A stretch of DNA of 64,000 nt from Escherichia coli (GTDB lineage Bacteria > Pseudomonadota > Gammaproteobacteria > Enterobacterales > Enterobacteriaceae): the NCBI RefSeq assembly GCF_013315695.1, contig NZ_CP054353.1; one strand, 5' to 3'. The notes beneath the pieces were generated by a model. The model was not told the origin of the DNA and made no database searches. It saw only the letters and a program-made list of their open reading frames with translations. A program made the translations under genes and the position numbers. This document shows, piece by piece, positions 25,767 through 34,961 of this stretch (position 1 is the first letter of the stretch; each line of letters begins with the position of its first letter).

Positions 25767-27301
25767 GGGTGCGGCTCCGTTTTGCTGGTTACGTCGATGG
25801 CATCGATACGGCGGCTGTTGAACAGATTGAATTTGGTATCTGAACCGTGGCAGCCATCACCAAAGGTAAAGCCGCAGCCATTTTTCTCCGGGAAGGCTTC
25901 CCGCGCCAGTTCACGATGACTACTCGGCACCACAAAGCGATCTTCGTAGTTAGCAATCGCCAGATAACGGTACATCTCCTGTGCCTGGGCTTCGGTCAGA
26001 CCGACCTCTTCCAGCGCACGGGTATCCACTTTCCCGTCAACGGTTTCAGCACGTTTATAATGACGCATCGCCAGCATACGTTTCAGCGCGCGCAGTACCG
26101 GTTTGGTATCACCGGCGGTCAGCAGATTCGCCAGATACTGTACCGGAATACGCAGGCTTTCGACGTCTGGCAGAATGCCGTTGCTGCCCAGCTCACCCGC
26201 ATCTGCTGCAGACTGAATCGGAGACAGAGGCGGCACGTACCAGACCATCGGCAGTGTGCGATATTCCGGATGCAGCGGCAGCGCCAGTTTCCATTCCATC
26301 GCCATTTTATAAACCGGCGACTGCTGTGCGGCTTCAATAACGCTCAGCGGAATACCGTCTTTAATCGCCTGCTCGATGACTTTCGGATCGTTCGGATCGA
26401 GGAACACGTCCAGCTGACGCTGGTAAAGATCTTTCTCGTTCTCAGTGCTGGCTGCACGTTCAATAGCGTCGGCATCGTACAACAGCACGCCGAGATAACG
26501 GATACGACCGACACAGGTTTCTGAGCACACGGTCGGCTGACCCGCTTCAATACGCGGATAGCAGAAGATGCACTTCTCAGACTTACCGCTCTTCCAGTTG
26601 AAATAGATTTTTTTGTACGGGCATCCGGTGATGCACATACGCCAGCCACGGCATTTATCCTGGTCGATCAGAACGATGCCATCTTCTTCACGCTTGTAAA
26701 TCGCACCGCTCGGGCAGGTCGCCACACATGCCGGGTTCAGGCAGTGTTCGCACAGGCGCGGCAAATACATCATGAAGGTGTTTTCGAACTGGCTATACAT
26801 CGCCTTCTGGATGTTGTCGAAGTTCTTGTCTTTCGCCAGCTTGTCGAACTCACCGCCCAGGTCATCTTCCCAGTTCGGCCCTTTTTCGATTTTCGCCATC
26901 CGTTCGCCGGTAATCAGCGAACGCGGACGGGCAATCGGCTGCGACTTGCTGCCTTCCGGCGCGGTATGCAGGTTCTGATAGTCAAAATCGAACGGCTCGT
27001 AATAATCGTCGATCCCCGGCAGATGCGGGTTAGCGAAGATTTTACCCAGCAGCATGGCGCGGTTACCCATGCGCGGCTGCAGTTTGCCGTTGATTTTACG
27101 GATCCAGCCGCCTTTGTATTTTTCCTGGTTTTCCCAGTCAGTCGGGAAGCCCTGGCCCGGCTTGGTTTCCACGTTGTTGAACCACGCGTATTCCACGCCT
27201 TCGCGGCTGGTCCAGACGTTTTTACAGGTAACTGAACAGGTGTGGCAGCCGATGCACTTATCGAGATTCAGCACCATGCCGACTTGTGAACGAATTTTCA
27301 T
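25763..27301 (-). CDS. narH: respiratory nitrate reductase A beta subunit
   Basis: 512 aa; multiple Cys clusters (CxxCxxCxxxCP) for Fe-S centres. Confidence 0.95.
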   Translation of the reverse strand: MKIRSQVGMVLNLDKCIGCHTCSVTCKNVWTSREGVEYAWFNNVETKPGQGFPTDWENQEKYKGGWIRKINGKLQPRMGNRAMLLGKIFANPHLPGIDDYYEPFDFDYQNLHTAPEGSKSQPIARPRSLITGERMAKIEKGPNWEDDLGGEFDKLAKDKNFDNIQKAMYSQFENTFMMYLPRLCEHCLNPACVATCPSGAIYKREEDGIVLIDQDKCRGWRMCITGCPYKKIYFNWKSGKSEKCIFCYPRIEAGQPTVCSETCVGRIRYLGVLLYDADAIERAASTENEKDLYQRQLDVFLDPNDPKVIEQAIKDGIPLSVIEAAQQSPVYKMAMEWKLALPLHPEYRTLPMVWYVPPLSPIQSAADAGELGSNGILPDVESLRIPVQYLANLLTAGDTKPVLRALKRMLAMRHYKRAETVDGKVDTRALEEVGLTEAQAQEMYRYLAIANYEDRFVVPSSHRELAREAFPEKNGCGFTFGDGCHGSDTKFNLFNSRRIDAIDVTSKTEPHP

Positions 27302-30300
27302 TTTACGCTCTCCTGTACCTGGTCATTGCCTTCGCCATCTAACCAGTCAATGTTCTTCATCTTACGCACTACAACAAACTCATCGCGGTTAGAACCTACG
27401 GTGCCGTAGTAGTTAAAGCCGTATGCCAGATGGGCATAGCCGCCGATCATATGCGTCGGTTTCGGCGTGATACGGGTGACCGAGTTATGGATACCACCAC
27501 GCTGTTGGGTAATTTCCGAACCAGGCAGGTTAACGATACGTTCCTGCGCGTGGTACATCATGGTCATCCCTGCCGGAACACGCTGGCTGACAACCGCACG
27601 GGCAGTCAGAGCACCGTTGCTGTTGAAGACTTCAATCCAGTCGTTATCGGCAATGCCCAGATCTTTGGCATCGGCTTCACTCAGCCAGACCACCGGACCA
27701 CCGCGACCTAAAGTCAGCATCAGCAGGTTGTCGCTGTAGGTGGAGTGGATACCCCACTTCTGGTGCGGCGTCAGGAAGTTGAGCGCTTTTTCCGGGTTGC
27801 CGTTGGATTTCTGCCCCATCACTTCTTTCACCGAACGGGTGTCGATCGGCGGACGATAAACCAGCAGGCTTTCACCGAAATCACGCATCCACTGGTGATC
27901 CTGATACAGTTGCTGACGACCAGAGAGCGTACGCCATGGGATCAGCTCGTGAACGTTGGTGTAACCGGCGTTGTAAGAAACGTGTTCATCTTCCAGACCA
28001 GACCAGGTCGGGCTGGAGATAATTTTGCGCGGCTGTGCCTGAATATCGCGGAAGCGGATCTTCTCGTCTTCTTTATTCAGCGCCAGATGCGTATGGTCAC
28101 GACCGGTAAATTCGCTCAGGGCAGCCCAGGCTTTTACAGCTACCTGACCATTGGTTTCCGGTGCCAGCGTCAGGATCATCTCTGCTGCATCAATTGCGGT
28201 ATTGAGCATCGGCTGACCTTTTGCCGGACCTTCCGCTTTGGTGTAGTTGAGCTTACGCAGCAGATCCATCTCGCTCTGGGTGTTCCAGGCAATCCCTTTA
28301 CCGCCATTACCGATTTTCTCCATCAGCGGGCCGATAGAGGTAAAGCGTTCGTAAGTCGCCGGATAATCGCGCTCTACGACCATAATGTGCGGTGCAGTTT
28401 TACCTGGGATCAGGTCGCATTCGCCTTTTTTCCAGTCTTTCACATCCAGCGGCTGTGCCAGTTCAGCGGCAGAGTCGTGCTGGATAGGCAGCGTGACGAT
28501 GTCGGTTTCTTTACCCAGATGACCAACGCACACTTCGGAGAATTTCCTGGCGATGGCTTTGTAGATTTCCCAGTCGCTTTTCGCTTCCCAGGCCGGATCG
28601 ACCGCCGCAGACAGCGGGTGAATAAACGGATGCATATCCGAAGTATTCATGTCGTCTTTTTCGTACCAGGTCGCCGTCGGCAAAATGATGTCGGAATAGA
28701 GACAGGTGCTCGACAGACGGAAGTCCAGCGTCACCACCAGATCCAGCTTGCCTTCCAGACCATTGTCCTGCCAGTCCACTTCTTCCGGCTTCACGCCGCC
28801 CTGCTGCCCCAGATCTTTACCCTGGATACCGTGCTCCGTCCCCAGCAGGTACTTGAGCATAAACTCATGACCTTTACCGGAAGAACCGAGCAGGTTAGAA
28901 CGCCAGATGAACAGGTTACGCGGGTGGTTTTTACCGTTTTCCGGCTGTTCCGCAGCGAAACGGATAGAACCCTCTTTCAGGGATTTCACCGTATAGTCCA
29001 CCGGATTCATCCCGGCTTTTTCTGCTTCGCGAGCGATAGTCAGCGGGTTAGTGCCTAACTGCGGTGCAGACGGCAGCCAGCCCATGCGTTCCGCACGGAC
29101 GTTAAAGTCGATCAGGTGTCCGGTATAACGGGATTTATCCGCCATCGGTGACAGCAACTCTTCCGCCGTGACGGTTTCATAACGCCACTGGCTGGAGTGG
29201 TTATAGAAATAAGAAGTGCTGTTCATGTGACGCGCCGGACGCTGCCAGTCAAGGGCAAACGCCAGCGGCTGCCAGCCGGTTTGCGGACGCAGTTTTTCCT
29301 GACCTACATAGTGCGCCCAGCCACCCCCGCTCTGACCGACACAGCCGCAGAAAATCAGCATGTTGATCAGACCACGATAGTTCATGTCCAGGTGATACCA
29401 GTGGTTCAGTCCCGCACCGACGATAATCATCGAACGACCGTGCGTTTTATCAGCGTTATCGGCAAATTCACGGGCGATGCGAATAATCTGGCTGCGAGAA
29501 ACGCCAGTGATTTGCTCGGCCCACGCCGGAGTGTAAGCTTTCACATCGTCATAGCTGGCTGCACAGTTAACGTCGTTCAGGCCACGTTCCAGACCATAGT
29601 TTGCCAGCGTCAGATCATAAACGGTGGTCACCAGGGCGGTGCTGCCATCAGCCAGTTGCAAGCGTTTCACCGGCAGCTTGTGCAGCAGCACGTTTTCCAG
29701 TTCCACTTTGTTGAAGTGTTCCGTGCCGTCGCCACCAAAGTACGGGAAGCCCACCTCAGCGATCTCATCCTGGCTACCCAGCAGGCTCAGTTGCAGCTCG
29801 GTTTCTTCGCCAGTTTTGCCGTCGCGCTGCTCAAGATTCCATTTGCCCTTCTCGCCCCAGCGGAAGCCAATAGAACCGTTCGGCGCAACCATTTCGCCAT
29901 TGGTATTAAAGGCGACAGTTTTCCATTCCGGATTGTTTTCCTGGCCCAGCGCATCCACCAGATCGGCAGCGCGCAGCATACGACCTGCGGCGTAGTAACC
30001 GTCGCGTTCTTCCAGCATCACCAGCATCGGCATGTCGGTGTAGCGACGCACATAGTCGGTGAAATACTGGCTTGGGTTGTCGAGGTGGAATTCACGCAGC
30101 ATTACGTGACCCATTGCCAGCGCCATTGCCGCATCGGTGCCCTGTTTCGGTGCCAGCCACAGATCGCACAGTTTGGCGATTTCAGCGTAGTCTGGTGTGA
30201 CGGCAACAGTTTTGGTGCCTTTGTAACGCACTTCAGTAAAGAAGTGAGCATCCGGGGTACGCGTCTGCGGCACGTTTGAACCCCAAGCGATGATGTAGCT

Positions 30301-31041
30301 GGAGTTGTACCAGTCAGCAGATTCCGGTACGTCAGTTTGCTCGCCCCAGGTTTGCGGAGACGCAGGAGGCAGGTCGCAGTACCAGTCGTAGAAGCTTAAG
30401 CAAGTACCGCCAATCAGCGAAAGATAGCGTGCACCCGATGCGTAAGAAACCATCGACATTGCCGGAATTGGCGAGAAGCCAGCGACGCGGTCCGGGCCGT
30501 AGTTTTTGATGGTGTAAACGTTAGAGGCGGCGATCAGTTCATTCACTTCCTGCCAGGAAGAACGAACAAAACCACCGCGTCCACGCGCCTGCTTAAAGCT
30601 TTTCGCTTTATCGGCGTCTTCAATGATAGAAGCCCATGCCTCAACCGGATCGCTATGCAGCGCCTTCGCTTCACGCCACATTTTCATCAGGCGTTTGCGC
30701 ATCATTGGGTATTTCAGGCGGTTGGCGCTGTAAAGATACCAGGAGTAGCTGGCACCGCGCGGGCAGCCGCGAGGTTCATGGTTTGGCAGGTCCGGGCGAG
30801 TACGCGGATAGTCAGTCTGCTGGGTTTCCCAGGTCACCAGACCGTTTTTGACGTAGATTTTCCAGCTGCAGGAGCCGGTGCAGTTTACCCCGTGGGTAGA
30901 GCGGACGATTTTGTCATGCTGCCAACGCTGGCGATATCCATCCTCCCAGTCACGGTTGGTATTGAGAAGCTGGCCATGCCCATCGGCAAAGGTTTCACCC
31001 TTCTGTTTGAAGTAGCGAAACCGGTCCAGGAATTTACTCAT
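27298..31041 (-). CDS. narG: respiratory nitrate reductase A alpha subunit
   Basis: 1247 aa molybdopterin oxidoreductase; N-terminal HGVNCTGSCSWKIY FS0-cluster motif. Confidence 0.96.
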   Translation of the reverse strand: MSKFLDRFRYFKQKGETFADGHGQLLNTNRDWEDGYRQRWQHDKIVRSTHGVNCTGSCSWKIYVKNGLVTWETQQTDYPRTRPDLPNHEPRGCPRGASYSWYLYSANRLKYPMMRKRLMKMWREAKALHSDPVEAWASIIEDADKAKSFKQARGRGGFVRSSWQEVNELIAASNVYTIKNYGPDRVAGFSPIPAMSMVSYASGARYLSLIGGTCLSFYDWYCDLPPASPQTWGEQTDVPESADWYNSSYIIAWGSNVPQTRTPDAHFFTEVRYKGTKTVAVTPDYAEIAKLCDLWLAPKQGTDAAMALAMGHVMLREFHLDNPSQYFTDYVRRYTDMPMLVMLEERDGYYAAGRMLRAADLVDALGQENNPEWKTVAFNTNGEMVAPNGSIGFRWGEKGKWNLEQRDGKTGEETELQLSLLGSQDEIAEVGFPYFGGDGTEHFNKVELENVLLHKLPVKRLQLADGSTALVTTVYDLTLANYGLERGLNDVNCAASYDDVKAYTPAWAEQITGVSRSQIIRIAREFADNADKTHGRSMIIVGAGLNHWYHLDMNYRGLINMLIFCGCVGQSGGGWAHYVGQEKLRPQTGWQPLAFALDWQRPARHMNSTSYFYNHSSQWRYETVTAEELLSPMADKSRYTGHLIDFNVRAERMGWLPSAPQLGTNPLTIAREAEKAGMNPVDYTVKSLKEGSIRFAAEQPENGKNHPRNLFIWRSNLLGSSGKGHEFMLKYLLGTEHGIQGKDLGQQGGVKPEEVDWQDNGLEGKLDLVVTLDFRLSSTCLYSDIILPTATWYEKDDMNTSDMHPFIHPLSAAVDPAWEAKSDWEIYKAIARKFSEVCVGHLGKETDIVTLPIQHDSAAELAQPLDVKDWKKGECDLIPGKTAPHIMVVERDYPATYERFTSIGPLMEKIGNGGKGIAWNTQSEMDLLRKLNYTKAEGPAKGQPMLNTAIDAAEMILTLAPETNGQVAVKAWAALSEFTGRDHTHLALNKEDEKIRFRDIQAQPRKIISSPTWSGLEDEHVSYNAGYTNVHELIPWRTLSGRQQLYQDHQWMRDFGESLLVYRPPIDTRSVKEVMGQKSNGNPEKALNFLTPHQKWGIHSTYSDNLLMLTLGRGGPVVWLSEADAKDLGIADNDWIEVFNSNGALTARAVVSQRVPAGMTMMYHAQERIVNLPGSEITQQRGGIHNSVTRITPKPTHMIGGYAHLAYGFNYYGTVGSNRDEFVVVRKMKNIDWLDGEGNDQVQESVK

Positions 31042-31132
31042 CGGTTTTCTCCTGTGGGAGCCTGTCGGCCCTCTGATAAATCGACATTGCTAATGTTTAA
31101 GGGCAAAGTAACGCTCTGAAACAGCGTGAGAA

Positions 31133-31146
31133 TTGATAACGATCAA
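31133..31146. promoter_or_regulatory. FNR box (TTGAT-AACG-ATCAA) in the narG promoter
   Basis: Perfect TTGAT-N4-ATCAA palindrome ~90 bp upstream of the narG start codon. Confidence 0.65.
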
Positions 31147-31183
31147 GAGTGATGGGGATGAAAAATAAAGTAAATTCCTAAGA

Positions 31184-31190
31184 TACCCCT
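31184..31190. promoter_or_regulatory. NarL heptamer (TACCCCT) in the narG upstream region
   Basis: Exact TACCCCT heptamer ~145 bp upstream of narG in an AT-rich control region; single-site call. Confidence 0.4.
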
Positions 31191-31434
31191 TTAGGATAAT
31201 TAGCAGTTACAGCATAACACGCTGTAAATTAAGACGTTTTATACCTGTAGTTATTTAAACTATTAAGATTTTTATGCAGATGGGTATTAAGGAGTATTCC
31301 CCATGGGTAACATATTAATGGCTCTTAATGAAATCCGGCGAAATAAGCCAATATAATATGAGTATGTTGTAACTAAATGACGCATAAAAAAAGCGCGACA
31401 TCATGCCGCGCAAAGGATAATCAAATATTAAGAT

Positions 31435-32826
31435 TTATTTTTTAGAATGCCGACCATATACCGCCCAGGTAATCACCACGCAGGCGATATAGAAAATCAA
31501 AAATACTTTCATTGCGCCGACTGGCGAACCCGTTAATGCCAGCGAGCTACCAAACGCTTTCGGGATAAAGAAGCCACCAATCGCGCCAATCGCAGAGATG
31601 AAACCCAGCGCCGCCGCCGTGTCGGTTGCCGCTTCACGCATCGCACGTTCGTCAGAACCCCCTTCTGCTTTCACGCGATCCATTGTCAGTTTACGGAAGA
31701 TCACGGAAATCATCTGGAAAGTGGAACCACTACCCAGCCCAGCTGTCAGGAACAGCGCCAGGAAGACTGCGAAGAACGCCATGAAGCTTCCGCCCTGTCC
31801 GTCAGTCGGTAAGGTCAGGAACAGCAGGCCGCTGAAAATCGCCATCAGGATAAAGTTCACCAGCGTGACACGAGTTCCGCCCAGACGGTCAGATAATGCA
31901 CCACCTGCAGAACGCGCCAGCGCACCAATAAACGGCCCGAAGAAAGCGTATTGCAGAATCTGAACATCCGGGAACTGCGTTTTTGACAGCATCGCAAAGC
32001 CCGCGGAGAAGCCGATGAAGGAGCCGAAGGTTGCCAGATACAGCAGGCTCATAATCCACAGATGACCCCGTTTGAGTACCGGCAACTGCTCCTTGATGGA
32101 GGCTTTCGAGGTAGCAAGATCGTTCATGCCAAACCACGCTGCAATGGTGAAGATGGCAAGGAACGGCACCCATACCCAGGACGCATTCGCCAGATACAGC
32201 TCAGTCCCATCCGGCTGTTTGACACCCTGGCTACCAAATACTGCGAAAATCGACAGTGATACCACCAGCGGAGCAACCAACTGCATGACGCTGACGCCCA
32301 TGTTGCCCAGACCACCATTCAGACCCAACGCGCCACCCTGCTTCTGTTTCGGAAAGAAGAAGCTGATGTTTGCCATACTGGATGCGAAGTTCGCGCCAGC
32401 AAAGCCGCACAGCAGAGAGATGATGATGAAGACGCTATAAGGCGTGGAGGTATCCTGCACGGCAAAACCCAGCCAGACGCAAGGAATAATCAGAATACCG
32501 GTGCTGAACGCCGTCCAGCGACGACCACCGAAGATAGGAACCATAAAGGAGTATGGAACACGTAATAACGCGCCAGAAACCGAAGGCAGCGCAGTCAACA
32601 TAAATAGCTGATCGGTCGTAAAATTAAAACCGACTTTCGGTAAGTTCACCGCAACAGCGCTGAACAACATCCATACGCAAAACGCCAGCAGCAGACAGGG
32701 AACGGAAATCCACAGGTTGCGGCTGGCAATACGTTGACCGCGTTGTTGCCAGAACGCAGGATCTTCCGGTCGCCAATCTGTAATGACAGCTCCAGTAGCC
32801 CTTTCGGGGGCGGATGAGTGACTCAT
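31435..32826 (-). CDS. narK: nitrate/nitrite transporter NarK (MFS)
   Basis: ORF 31435..32832; start at MSHSSAPERATG gives 463 aa; 12-TM MFS protein. Confidence 0.92.
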   Translation of the reverse strand: MSHSSAPERATGAVITDWRPEDPAFWQQRGQRIASRNLWISVPCLLLAFCVWMLFSAVAVNLPKVGFNFTTDQLFMLTALPSVSGALLRVPYSFMVPIFGGRRWTAFSTGILIIPCVWLGFAVQDTSTPYSVFIIISLLCGFAGANFASSMANISFFFPKQKQGGALGLNGGLGNMGVSVMQLVAPLVVSLSIFAVFGSQGVKQPDGTELYLANASWVWVPFLAIFTIAAWFGMNDLATSKASIKEQLPVLKRGHLWIMSLLYLATFGSFIGFSAGFAMLSKTQFPDVQILQYAFFGPFIGALARSAGGALSDRLGGTRVTLVNFILMAIFSGLLFLTLPTDGQGGSFMAFFAVFLALFLTAGLGSGSTFQMISVIFRKLTMDRVKAEGGSDERAMREAATDTAAALGFISAIGAIGGFFIPKAFGSSLALTGSPVGAMKVFLIFYIACVVITWAVYGRHSKK

Positions 32827-32885
32827 AGACACCTCTGATACTCGTTTCGATGTCTGCCACCTTAGTGTCTGTAGCTAAAGGCAAT

Positions 32886-32899
32886 TTGATGTAAATCAA
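32886..32899. promoter_or_regulatory. FNR box (TTGAT-GTAA-ATCAA) in the narK promoter
   Basis: Perfect TTGAT-N4-ATCAA palindrome ~60 bp upstream of the narK start codon. Confidence 0.6.
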
Positions 32900-33164
32900 A
32901 CGATAAGATAACTTTATCTATCATTGATATTTATCATTACCCATAGTGAGTACAGTGATTTCATAAAAATTATGAGATTTTTCACGGTGCTGTAAAATCC
33001 CTCCCCTTACCGATGTAAAGCGACTAACCACGCGGCAAATAAGGAGTAACTCTTTCCGGGTATGGGTATACTTCAGCCAATAGCCGAGAATACTGCCATT
33101 CCAGAATGTATCGTCACATTCATTAAGGTTATTGCTCATTTAAAGCCTGAAGGAAGAGGTTTAC

Positions 33165-34961
33165 ATGCTTACACGTTGTCTCTCTCCGCTCACCCTGGTT
33201 AATCAGGTTGCGCTTATTGTGTTGCTTTCTACTGCTATTGGACTGGCAGGGATGGCAGTTTCTGGCTGGCTAGTGCAAGGAGTTCAGGGCAGCGCCCATG
33301 CGATCAACAAAGCGGGATCGCTGCGCATGCAAAGTTACCGTCTGTTGGCGGCAGTGCCATTAAGCGAGAAAGACAAGCCCTTAATTAAAGAAATGGAACA
33401 AACGGCATTTAGCGCCGAGTTGACTCGAGCAGCGGAACGAGACGGACAACTGGCGCAATTACAGGGTTTACAAGATTACTGGCGTAATGAACTGATCCCT
33501 GCGCTGATGCGTGCACAAAACCGCGAAACGGTGTCAGCGGATGTCAGCCAGTTTGTTGCCGGGCTTGATCAGCTGGTATCTGGTTTTGACCGCACCACGG
33601 AAATGCGCATTGAGACAGTGGTACTGGTCCATCGGGTAATGGCGGTATTTATGGCACTTTTACTGGTGTTCACTATTATCTGGTTGCGGGCGCGACTGCT
33701 ACAACCGTGGCGGCAACTGCTGGCAATGGCGAGTGCCGTCAGCCATCGCGATTTTACCCAACGCGCAAACATCAGCGGGCGCAACGAAATGGCGATGCTT
33801 GGAACTGCATTGAACAATATGTCTGCAGAACTGGCCGAAAGTTATGCCGTACTTGAGCAGCGGGTTCAGGAGAAAACTGCCGGGCTGGAGCATAAAAATC
33901 AGATCCTCTCTTTTTTATGGCAGGCTAACCGCCGTTTGCATTCCCGCGCCCCGCTGTGTGAACGCCTGTCACCGGTACTCAACGGCTTACAGAATTTAAC
34001 CCTGCTACGTGATATCGAACTGCGGGTGTATGACACTGATGATGAAGAGAATCATCAGGAGTTTACCTGCCAGCCAGATATGACTTGTGATGATAAAGGC
34101 TGCCAGCTCTGCCCGCGCGGCATATTACCCGTTGGCGATCGCGGCACAACCCTGAAGTGGCGGCTGGCTGACTCTCATACGCAGTACGGTATTTTGCTGG
34201 CGACCCTGCCGCAGGGGCGTCATCTTAGCCATGATCAACAACAACTGGTGGATACCCTGGTTGAACAACTCACCGCCACGCTGGCGCTGGATCGGCATCA
34301 GGAACGTCAGCAACAGTTGATCGTGATGGAAGAGCGTGCCACCATTGCGCGCGAACTGCATGATTCTATTGCCCAATCTCTCTCTTGCATGAAGATGCAG
34401 GTGAGTTGTTTACAGATGCAGGGCGATGCGCTGCCAGAAAGCAGCCGCGAACTGTTAAGTCAGATCCGTAACGAACTGAATGCATCCTGGGCGCAGTTGC
34501 GTGAATTGCTCACTACATTCCGCTTGCAGCTCACCGAGCCTGGATTACGTCCGGCGCTGGAGGCGAGTTGCGAAGAGTACAGCGCCAAATTTGGCTTCCC
34601 GGTGAAGCTGGATTATCAATTGCCGCCTCGTCTGGTGCCTTCGCATCAGGCAATCCACTTGTTGCAAATTGCCCGTGAGGCATTAAGTAACGCCCTCAAA
34701 CATTCGCAAGCGAGTGAGGTCGTGGTGACGGTGGCGCAAAACGATAATCAGGTCAAACTGACCGTCCAGGATAACGGCTGCGGCGTGCCTGAAAATGCCA
34801 TCCGCAGCAATCACTACGGCATGATAATAATGCGCGACCGTGCGCAAAGTTTACGAGGCGATTGCCGCGTCCGCCGTCGTGAATCAGGTGGCACCGAAGT
34901 GGTTGTCACCTTTATTCCCGAAAAAACTTTCACAGACGTCCAAGGAGATACCCATGAGTAA
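33165..34961 (+). CDS. narX: nitrate/nitrite sensor histidine kinase NarX
   Basis: 598 aa; two TM segments, HAMP, H-box ELHDSIAQ, HATPase domain. Confidence 0.94.

Follow-up and report, generated by a model that had tools for sequence, protein, structure and literature searches.

Promoter, replication terminator and small-RNA terminator in the narK-narG spacer of Escherichia coli

The window analysed here is a stretch of 64,000 nucleotides of Escherichia coli DNA (contig NZ_CP054353.1), and the interval of interest, 31042-31434, is the 393-bp gap from the narG start codon to the narK stop codon. As both flanking genes lie on the minus strand, the spacer is to be read on that strand; the gene order narX, narK, narG is that of the IAI39 and K-12 annotations. 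Beyond the narK/narG pair lies a divergent ORF of 598 aa.

27298-31041, minus strand: narG ORF, 1247 aa
31435-32832, minus strand: narK ORF, 465 aa

The original prediction had described this interval as an AT-rich region of about 390 bp which controls narG through an FNR box and a NarL heptamer, and had called it ordinary biology. The composition agrees, with 36.6% GC in the spacer against 50.1% for the window, and a string check found the FNR box at 31133-31146 and the heptamer TACCCCT at 31184-31190, where both had been placed. The 393-bp spacer was found in 5415 of 5426 complete E. coli genomes, and the 393 bp are 100% identical in E. coli IAI39, SMS-3-5, CE10 and others.

Positions relative to the narG transcription start were assigned through the published primer numbering of a later Busby-lab paper, which is derived from K-12. 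The fragment called the full-length narG promoter in that work runs from -223 to +70, with both primers given (PMC9314961 supplement). In the window -223 corresponds to 31321 and +70 to 31029, and both primer ends agree in placing narG +1 at 31098 (A). To follow the region across species, we scanned species-representative genomes by pattern for the narG N-terminus, which gave at least 120 loci, and aligned 108 upstream regions among the loci listed to the window, with a median identity of 58%. The islands conserved in the alignment, across about 108 species listed, were the FNR half-sites, the TAC of the -10 hexamer, TACnCCTTAATACC, the GGTA at -89, the IHF columns, the Ter core and the 5' UTR. 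The analysis itself covers sequence identity, motif positions, orientation, cross-species conservation and RNA complementarity, while protein binding and regulatory outcomes are taken from the literature or inferred.

Read from narK towards narG, the spacer begins with three features.

31386-31446, minus strand: NarS sRNA in its short, ERIC-free form, about 61 nt, with ends mapped from RefSeq narS b4813 and the seed at 31411-31429
31386-31411, minus strand: narK intrinsic terminator, with the hairpin GCGCGGCATGATGTCGCGC at 31393-31411 followed by a run of seven Ts at 31386-31392
31357-31379, plus strand (the G6 strand): TerD, TATGAGTATGTTGTAACTAAATG, a 23-bp Ter site, Tus-binding by equivalence with K-12

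NarS overlaps the last 12 nt of narK, including the stop codon, and the RefSeq K-12 narS likewise runs from 12 nt before the narK end to just past the terminator. Among the loci listed the narK terminator is conserved across species and the NarS seed, TTGATTATCC, across genera. The seed can form a 19-bp perfect duplex with the Shine-Dalgarno sequence of K-12 nirC, at -22.7 kcal/mol compared with -11.2 +/- 2.7 for shuffles. For Salmonella NarS, RNase E processing and Hfq binding have been shown (PMC7038943). The terminator would form two 3' ends, that of the narK mRNA and that of NarS, the sRNA which represses nirC. An Rfam scan of 30500-33500 returned sub-threshold chance matches only, with none at the NarS position at E <= 1. 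One of the Rfam matches, to L20_leader, reached 24.9 bits where the gathering score is 58.7; it is really the narK terminator.

By alignment, a 123-bp insertion found in K-12 is absent from the window, and the spacer thus has no ERIC/IRU, an imperfect palindrome of about 125 bp, directly behind the narK stop codon. The insertion is present in 2457 of the 5426 complete E. coli genomes; about 55%, including the window, are without it. We take it to be an ERIC, as part of it matches the ERIC2 primer sequence. The strain thus carries a short, Salmonella-like NarS and not the ERIC-expanded form of K-12.

Next to the terminator, the alignment exposed an invariant 15-mer, TAGTTACAACATACT (31375 to 31361, minus strand), with unconserved flanks. 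Considered as a transcription factor site, it misfitted every motif that we could recall (NarL 7-2-7, OmpR, ArcA, ModE, NsrR and the sigma-S -10). Searched for as literal text, the string came up in Tus-Ter papers only; it is identical to positions 5-19 of the Ter core, which are the same in K-12 TerA, TerB and TerD. The Ter core has been defined as position 6 and positions 8-18 (PMC8347550), and both G6 and the 8-18 core, ATGTTGTAACT, are exact at 31357-31379. K-12 terD is an intergenic, fork-blocking site at 1.28 Mb which varies by 1-2 SNPs per 23 bp across E. coli, and the K-12 evidence for Tus occupancy and fork arrest comes from ChIP-seq and 2D gels (PMC10331603). Between narK and narG, a Ter site with exact G6 and core 8-18 was present in 80 of 111 species, counted among the loci listed with enough upstream sequence. 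A second Ter-like 12-mer at 31205-31216, inverted and matching 11 of 12 core positions, was treated as chance because it is without G6 and lies in spacer that is hypervariable within Escherichia.

The orientation of the site allows a prediction about replication. The trapped helicase runs 5'-to-3' on the G6 strand (PMC4499146), and as this is the plus strand here, forks moving toward higher window coordinates would be blocked. GC skew on the plus strand is negative in all eight 8-kb bins, and the normal fork thus runs to lower coordinates; with G6 on the same strand, it meets the permissive face, in keeping with a fork-trap site. Bound by Tus, TerD would arrest only forks leaving the terminus region. 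In K-12, TerD has G6 on the minus strand and blocks the anticlockwise fork, in agreement with the published set, in which TerA, D, E, I and H block that fork and TerA-E and G are bound by Tus in vivo.

The constancy of this arrangement raises the question of whether TerD, the narK/NarS terminator and the region upstream of narG form an ancient, syntenic and functionally coupled module in most Enterobacteriaceae, TerD then being more than a redundant back-up at a random place. The terminator might shield the permissive face of Tus from strong anaerobic narK transcription, as transcription reportedly displaces Tus (Mohanty et al. 1996), or a Tus roadblock might set the NarS 3' end and insulate the narG promoter. 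Several observations point this way. In 74 of 77 species listed, 5-7 bp separate the end of the terminator T-run from Ter position 23; of the species sampled among the loci listed, about 72% have TerD at 5-7 bp behind the narK terminator. The site always has the same orientation (80 species listed as TerD, none opposite), and K-12 TerC is likewise abutted by a terminator, that of uxaB, which ends 4-6 bp away. Expression of narK is induced more than 3000-fold (PMC7038943), and the Tus-Ter literature calls the need for TerD enigmatic. How the ter sites of Salmonella and Klebsiella are related to the E. coli ones is described as unclear in the same literature (PMC8347550), and we found in it no mention of TerD/narK-terminator synteny.

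Other observations, however, make such a module unlikely. K-12 TerA, TerB and TerE have no such terminator, TerE lying inside the efeUOB operon, and shielding by a terminator therefore fails as a general rule, holding for K-12 TerC and TerD only. The narK-narG arrangement is kept without any Ter in 28 of the 111 species listed, and the fixed spacing is perhaps the mere inheritance of a short ancestral spacer. Because of these exceptions and the Ter-less species, the coupling stays speculative. The positional conservation of TerD beside the narK terminator could be of interest to specialists in replication termination.

A different reading would make the whole 393 bp narG control DNA, with the invariant distal block as a further transcription factor site. 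The main attraction of this idea is spacing, as the distance between TAGTTACAACATACT and the FNR box hardly varies (224-228 bp in most species listed). We nevertheless regard it as very improbable. The block is a Ter core, identical to that of K-12 TerA, TerB and TerD, and its conservation profile across the listed species, fixed at positions 5-19 and free at 1-4 and 20-23, closely resembles the one published for Ter sites (PMC8347550), from which it differs in that positions 5, 7 and 19 are nearly fixed as well. TerD spans -259 to -281 relative to the narG start, while the promoter fragment begins at -223 and the narG footprinting fragment covers -236 to +155 (PMC4549865). As TerD lies outside both fragments, it is not narG control DNA. 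The original description of the interval as the narG control region therefore holds for the promoter and leader, but not for 31357-31434, where about 90 bp belong to TerD and the narK terminator with NarS.

On the narG side of TerD, the interval is indeed control DNA, and the promoter elements are as follows.

31303-31309, minus strand: NarL heptamer TACCCAT, centre -208, curated; part of the distal NarL region, 31280-31309
31290-31296, minus strand: NarL heptamer TACTCCT, centre -195, curated; distal NarL region
31280-31286, minus strand: NarL heptamer TACCCAT, centre -185, curated; distal NarL region
31215-31227, minus strand: predicted IHF core TTACAGCGTGTTA, centre -123, two mismatches to WATCARNNNNTTR
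31196-31202, minus strand: NarL heptamer TAATTAT, centre -101, curated; poorly conserved
31184-31190, plus strand: NarL heptamer TACCCCT (AGGGGTA on the narG strand), centre -89, inverted relative to narG, curated
31174-31180, minus strand: NarL heptamer TAGGAAT, centre -79, curated
31166-31172, minus strand: NarL heptamer TACTTTA, centre -71, curated
31152-31158, minus strand: NarL heptamer TCCCCAT, centre -57, curated; conservation weak
31133-31146, minus strand: FNR site TTGATcgttATCAA, -48 to -35, centre -41.5, the class II position; the plus strand reads TTGATAACGATCAA
31105-31110, minus strand: -10 hexamer TACTTT, -12 to -7; TACCTT in K-12

The motif list of the original prediction was correct yet incomplete, as the promoter has eight curated NarL heptamers instead of one, together with a predicted IHF site. 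The curated NarL sites for narG (b1224) are eight heptamers from -208 to -57 (PMC2718512 supplement), and all eight are present in the window and identical to K-12. Four fit the consensus (31184 on the plus strand; 31280, 31290 and 31303 on the minus strand) and four are curated variants. MotifAdjuster has re-read the -79 heptamer as the inverted AATTCCT. For the -71 heptamer, the flanks recorded in the database map instead to the copy in the K-12 ERIC. Matches to TACYYMT number 44 in the window (30.6 expected) and five in the 393 bp (0.19 expected; Poisson P about 2e-6), and only 0.04% of composition-matched shuffles of the 393-bp region reached five. The fifth of these, 31358-31364, corresponds to Ter positions 2-8 and is probably not a NarL site.

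The heptamers differ in how well they are kept. Published DNase I footprints lie at about -89 and -195, with -89 the high-affinity NarL-phosphate footprint (PMC4549865), and the centres at -89 and at -208/-195/-185 coincide with them. Among the loci listed, a consensus heptamer stands at exactly -195 in 80 of 108 species, the segment TACnCCTTAATACC (-198 to -185) is about 90% conserved, and the GGTA core of the -89 heptamer keeps its position across species. The individual importance of the -57, -71, -79, -101 and -208 heptamers is uncertain, as they are poorly conserved between genera.

The IHF core is less close to consensus in E. coli than in many relatives. Among the loci listed, 65 of 109 sequences have at most one mismatch to WATCARNNNNTTR, in the sense orientation and centred between -125 and -121, while E. 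coli itself has two; the core columns C, A and TT are conserved across the species loci listed. An antisense candidate centred at -135, AATTAAGACGTTT, had been considered first and was dropped, the sense core at -123 being backed by the 65 sequences. We take the narG IHF footprints to lie at about -110 to -140, which matches a core at -123. IHF is required at the narG promoter (PMC4549865, PMC3688515), and a bend at about -123 would enable the distal NarL cluster to act on the promoter.

The FNR box matches the consensus TTGAT-N4-ATCAA perfectly, at 10 of 10 positions. Two perfect boxes occur in the window where 0.13 were expected, a number reached in 1 of 100 shuffles. The second, at 32886-32899, lies upstream of narK, whose promoter in the window combines this box with three consensus NarL heptamers. 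An FNR ChIP table gives narGHJI and narK with FNR at -41.5 in both cases (PMC3688515). At nearly every one of the 120 loci listed, a single perfect FNR box stands at 93-102 bp from the ATG, its half-sites invariant and its four central bases variable. The -10 hexamer is TACCTT in 56 and TACTTT in 13 of the species loci listed. A sigma-70 consensus scan found no -35/-10 pair for narG; no consensus -35 is expected in a class II FNR promoter, because the activator sits there. The narG promoter thus has the consensus match, the -41.5 position and the -10 without a -35 that belong to this class.

Measured from the mapped narG start, the FNR box is at -41.5 and the heptamer of the original prediction at -89. 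Both fit the start site, and the reading that FNR and NarL control narG therefore stands. That the FNR box and TACCCCT are instead chance matches in AT-rich DNA, without a regulatory role, we consider practically excluded: a single TACYYMT is common, and the match inside TerD is indeed chance, but the heptamers cluster far beyond expectation, each of the two perfect FNR boxes stands at -41.5 of a ChIP-listed FNR promoter (PMC3688515), both motifs keep their positions in about 100 species listed while the spacers vary, and both are curated, footprinted K-12 sites (PMC4549865, PMC2718512).

With narG control by FNR and NarL as the preferred reading, the promoter may be pictured as follows. Under anoxia, an FNR dimer would occupy TTGATcgttATCAA at -41.5 and contact RNA polymerase, which would use the weak -10 TACTTT with no usable -35. 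When nitrate is present, NarX would phosphorylate NarL, and NarL-phosphate would fill the heptamers around -89 (-57, -71, -79, -89 and -101) and around -195 (-208, -195 and -185). Full induction of narG would require FNR, NarL and IHF together. The FNR dependence and anoxia response of narG transcription are known for K-12 (PMC4549865, PMC3688515), and NarL-phosphate binding and nitrate induction at narG are known from the literature (PMC4549865).

The transcribed leader contains four features.

31042-31098, minus strand: narG 5' UTR, 57 nt, from +1 up to, but not including, the ATG at 31041
31082-31091, minus strand: putative RyhB pairing block AGCAAUGUCG, +8 to +17, invariant across the species listed
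31058-31071, minus strand: predicted small hairpin, +28 to +41, with a 5-bp stem and 4-nt loop, shortly before the Shine-Dalgarno sequence
31049-31053, minus strand: Shine-Dalgarno sequence AGGAG of the narG leader

From +8 to +57 the leader is about 90-100% identical in 109 sequences among the loci listed. Strong RNA structure is not supported as the cause, as the minimum free energy is -12.5 kcal/mol with z = -0.86. The stem at +28 to +41 keeps its sequence among the species listed; a single compatible change, at +29, turns A-U into G.U, and there is no true covariation. A 17-codon upstream ORF, MSIYQRADRLPQEKTDE, which overlaps the narG ATG, was also rejected: 70 of 118 sequences listed have no in-frame ATG, 43 of these 70 are also without the stop, and third codon positions show no excess of variation.

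A third candidate explanation is pairing with RyhB. The block AGCAAUGUCG is a perfect 10-nt complement of RyhB nt 37-46, a length reached in 0.5% of shuffled leaders in what was a post hoc test with a single sRNA, and it lies 30-40 nt upstream of the narG Shine-Dalgarno sequence. Published work names narG as a predicted RyhB target with translational repression in Ribo-seq (log2 1.07, P 0.022) at an unchanged RNA level (PMC4666370), and narGHJI as a RyhB candidate under anaerobiosis (PMC4676285). Given the complementarity and these data, it is reasonable, if unproven, to suggest that RyhB pairing explains part of the leader conservation. The leader carries the ribosome-binding site and, on this reading, a RyhB site that would spare iron.

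We put the probability at about 95% that this is the narK-narG intergenic region of E. coli, in which the narGHJI promoter and its leader (31042 to about 31310) share the spacer with TerD, the narK terminator and NarS. The narG result re-identifies one of the best-characterised co-activated promoters of E. coli and agrees with the literature in all tested respects. Everything in the interval is already known, as the description "ordinary biology" implied, and the adjacency of TerD and the terminator is the only mildly novel point. The lesson is one of annotation hygiene: a "promoter region" recognised by two motifs turns out to hold four independent known elements, namely the promoter itself, TerD, the terminator of NarS and a likely site for RyhB, and one of its NarL-like heptamers is really part of TerD.

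Compared with the narGHJI promoter of K-12 MG1655, the locus is the same, with no change in the FNR box, the eight heptamers, the IHF consensus positions or the 5' UTR. By alignment, the two promoters differ at only nine positions, all within -123 to -9 and none in a curated site: one at -9 (TACTTT for TACCTT), one at -31 and seven in -123 to -105, where they affect unconstrained positions of the IHF core and the stretch that separates it from the -101 heptamer. The FNR half-sites, the NarS seed, the narK terminator and the Ter core are likewise free of differences. As -9 (T for C) and -31 differ from K-12, the strength of the narG promoter could be somewhat different. This stretch from the IHF core to the -101 heptamer is hypervariable among E. 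coli genomes, and its exact haplotype here occurs in 37 complete genomes only. With the narK, nirB and fdnG promoters narG shares the class II FNR site at -41.5 and upstream NarL heptamers; it is without a 7-2-7 inverted pair and has two separated heptamer clusters bridged by IHF (PMC4549865).

The two elements on the narK side have equally close counterparts. TerD is identical to K-12 TerD, CATTAGTATGTTGTAACTAAATG (1279527-1279549), at 21 of 23 positions and has the same intergenic position and orientation; the differences, T and G here for C and T in K-12 at positions 1 and 4, fall in the variable part. NarS of K-12 is about 230 nt, longer through an insertion near the stop codon, while NarS-S of Salmonella is 63 nt (PMC7038943). 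The much greater length in K-12, where the annotated, ERIC-expanded form is 184 nt, is due to the element inserted near the narK stop codon, and the window has the short form without the insert. At about 61 nt, it shares with NarS-S its origin from the narK 3' end and the layout of a seed followed by a terminator.

The Tus-binding replication terminator TerD lies on the plus strand in the gap between narK and narG, and this placement recurs well beyond E. coli. The features discussed here are as follows.

31042-31098, minus strand: narG 5' UTR
31107 and 31129: narG promoter positions -9 and -31
31357-31379, plus strand: TerD, narK-narG gap
31386-31446, minus strand: NarS, the sRNA from the narK 3' UTR, short form of about 61 nt
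32886-32899: perfect FNR box TTGATGTAAATCAA, narK promoter
32938-33068: three consensus NarL heptamers, narK promoter
L001:5338-5521: NarS in the K-12 narK-narG locus
1609157-1609179 (L125): TerC, K-12

Among the matches listed for narG loci of species-representative genomes (L003-L122), 80 of 111 enterobacterial species carry a Ter with an exact core (G6 plus positions 8-18) in the identical place and orientation, 5-7 bp past the narK terminator T-run. A one-mismatch derivative was found in three of these 111, and a narK-narG Ter was absent from 28. The distance from the narG FNR box to Ter is 224-228 bp in most species.

In K-12, NarS carries a 123-bp ERIC-like insertion, whereas the window has the short form. 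The insertion lies directly past the narK stop codon in K-12 and occurs in 2457 of the 5426 complete genomes of E. coli. ERIC-like sequence also lies directly upstream of the NarS seed in several Citrobacter species (L003, L028, L031, L072 and L114). The narG NarL heptamer TACTTTA is given the database context TCACTTACTTTAGTAAG (PMC2718512 supplement), which maps into the K-12 ERIC element (about L001:5400) rather than to promoter position -71; the source database appears to have mapped it wrongly.

The narG -10 hexamer is TACTTT in the window and TACCTT in K-12, the former being one step nearer TATAAT; among the matches listed, sampled species carry TACTTT in 13 cases and TACCTT in 56. This change falls at -9, and position -31 differs from K-12 as well. 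The spacer separating the IHF core from the -101 heptamer holds seven further substitutions relative to K-12, packed into 19 bp (31203-31221), an exact haplotype seen in only 37 complete E. coli genomes. This allele yields a 12-mer (31205-31216) matching the Ter core at 11 of 12 positions, inverted and without G6, which is probably a chance match in a hypervariable spacer.

The only other perfect FNR box in the window, that of the narK promoter, lies with its NarL heptamers within the divergent narX-narK region.

Positions +8 to +57 of the narG 5' UTR are near-invariant (109 sequences, among the matches listed), and a small conserved hairpin lies upstream of the Shine-Dalgarno sequence. The RyhB core has a perfect 10-nt complement at +8 to +17; the conserved leader also includes +18 to +27, beyond it. 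A perfect 11-nt inverted repeat, AGGAATTTACT / AGTAAATTCCT, joins narG codons 2-5 (31028-31038) and the -79/-71 NarL heptamer region (31169-31179). Transcription covers only one arm, so an RNA hairpin between them is impossible.

In K-12, TerE lies between efeU and efeO. TerA follows the stop codon of lapB at 17 nt and has no accompanying hairpin. At TerC the uxaB intrinsic terminator adjoins the permissive face and ends 4-6 bp off, the same arrangement as that of TerD and narK.
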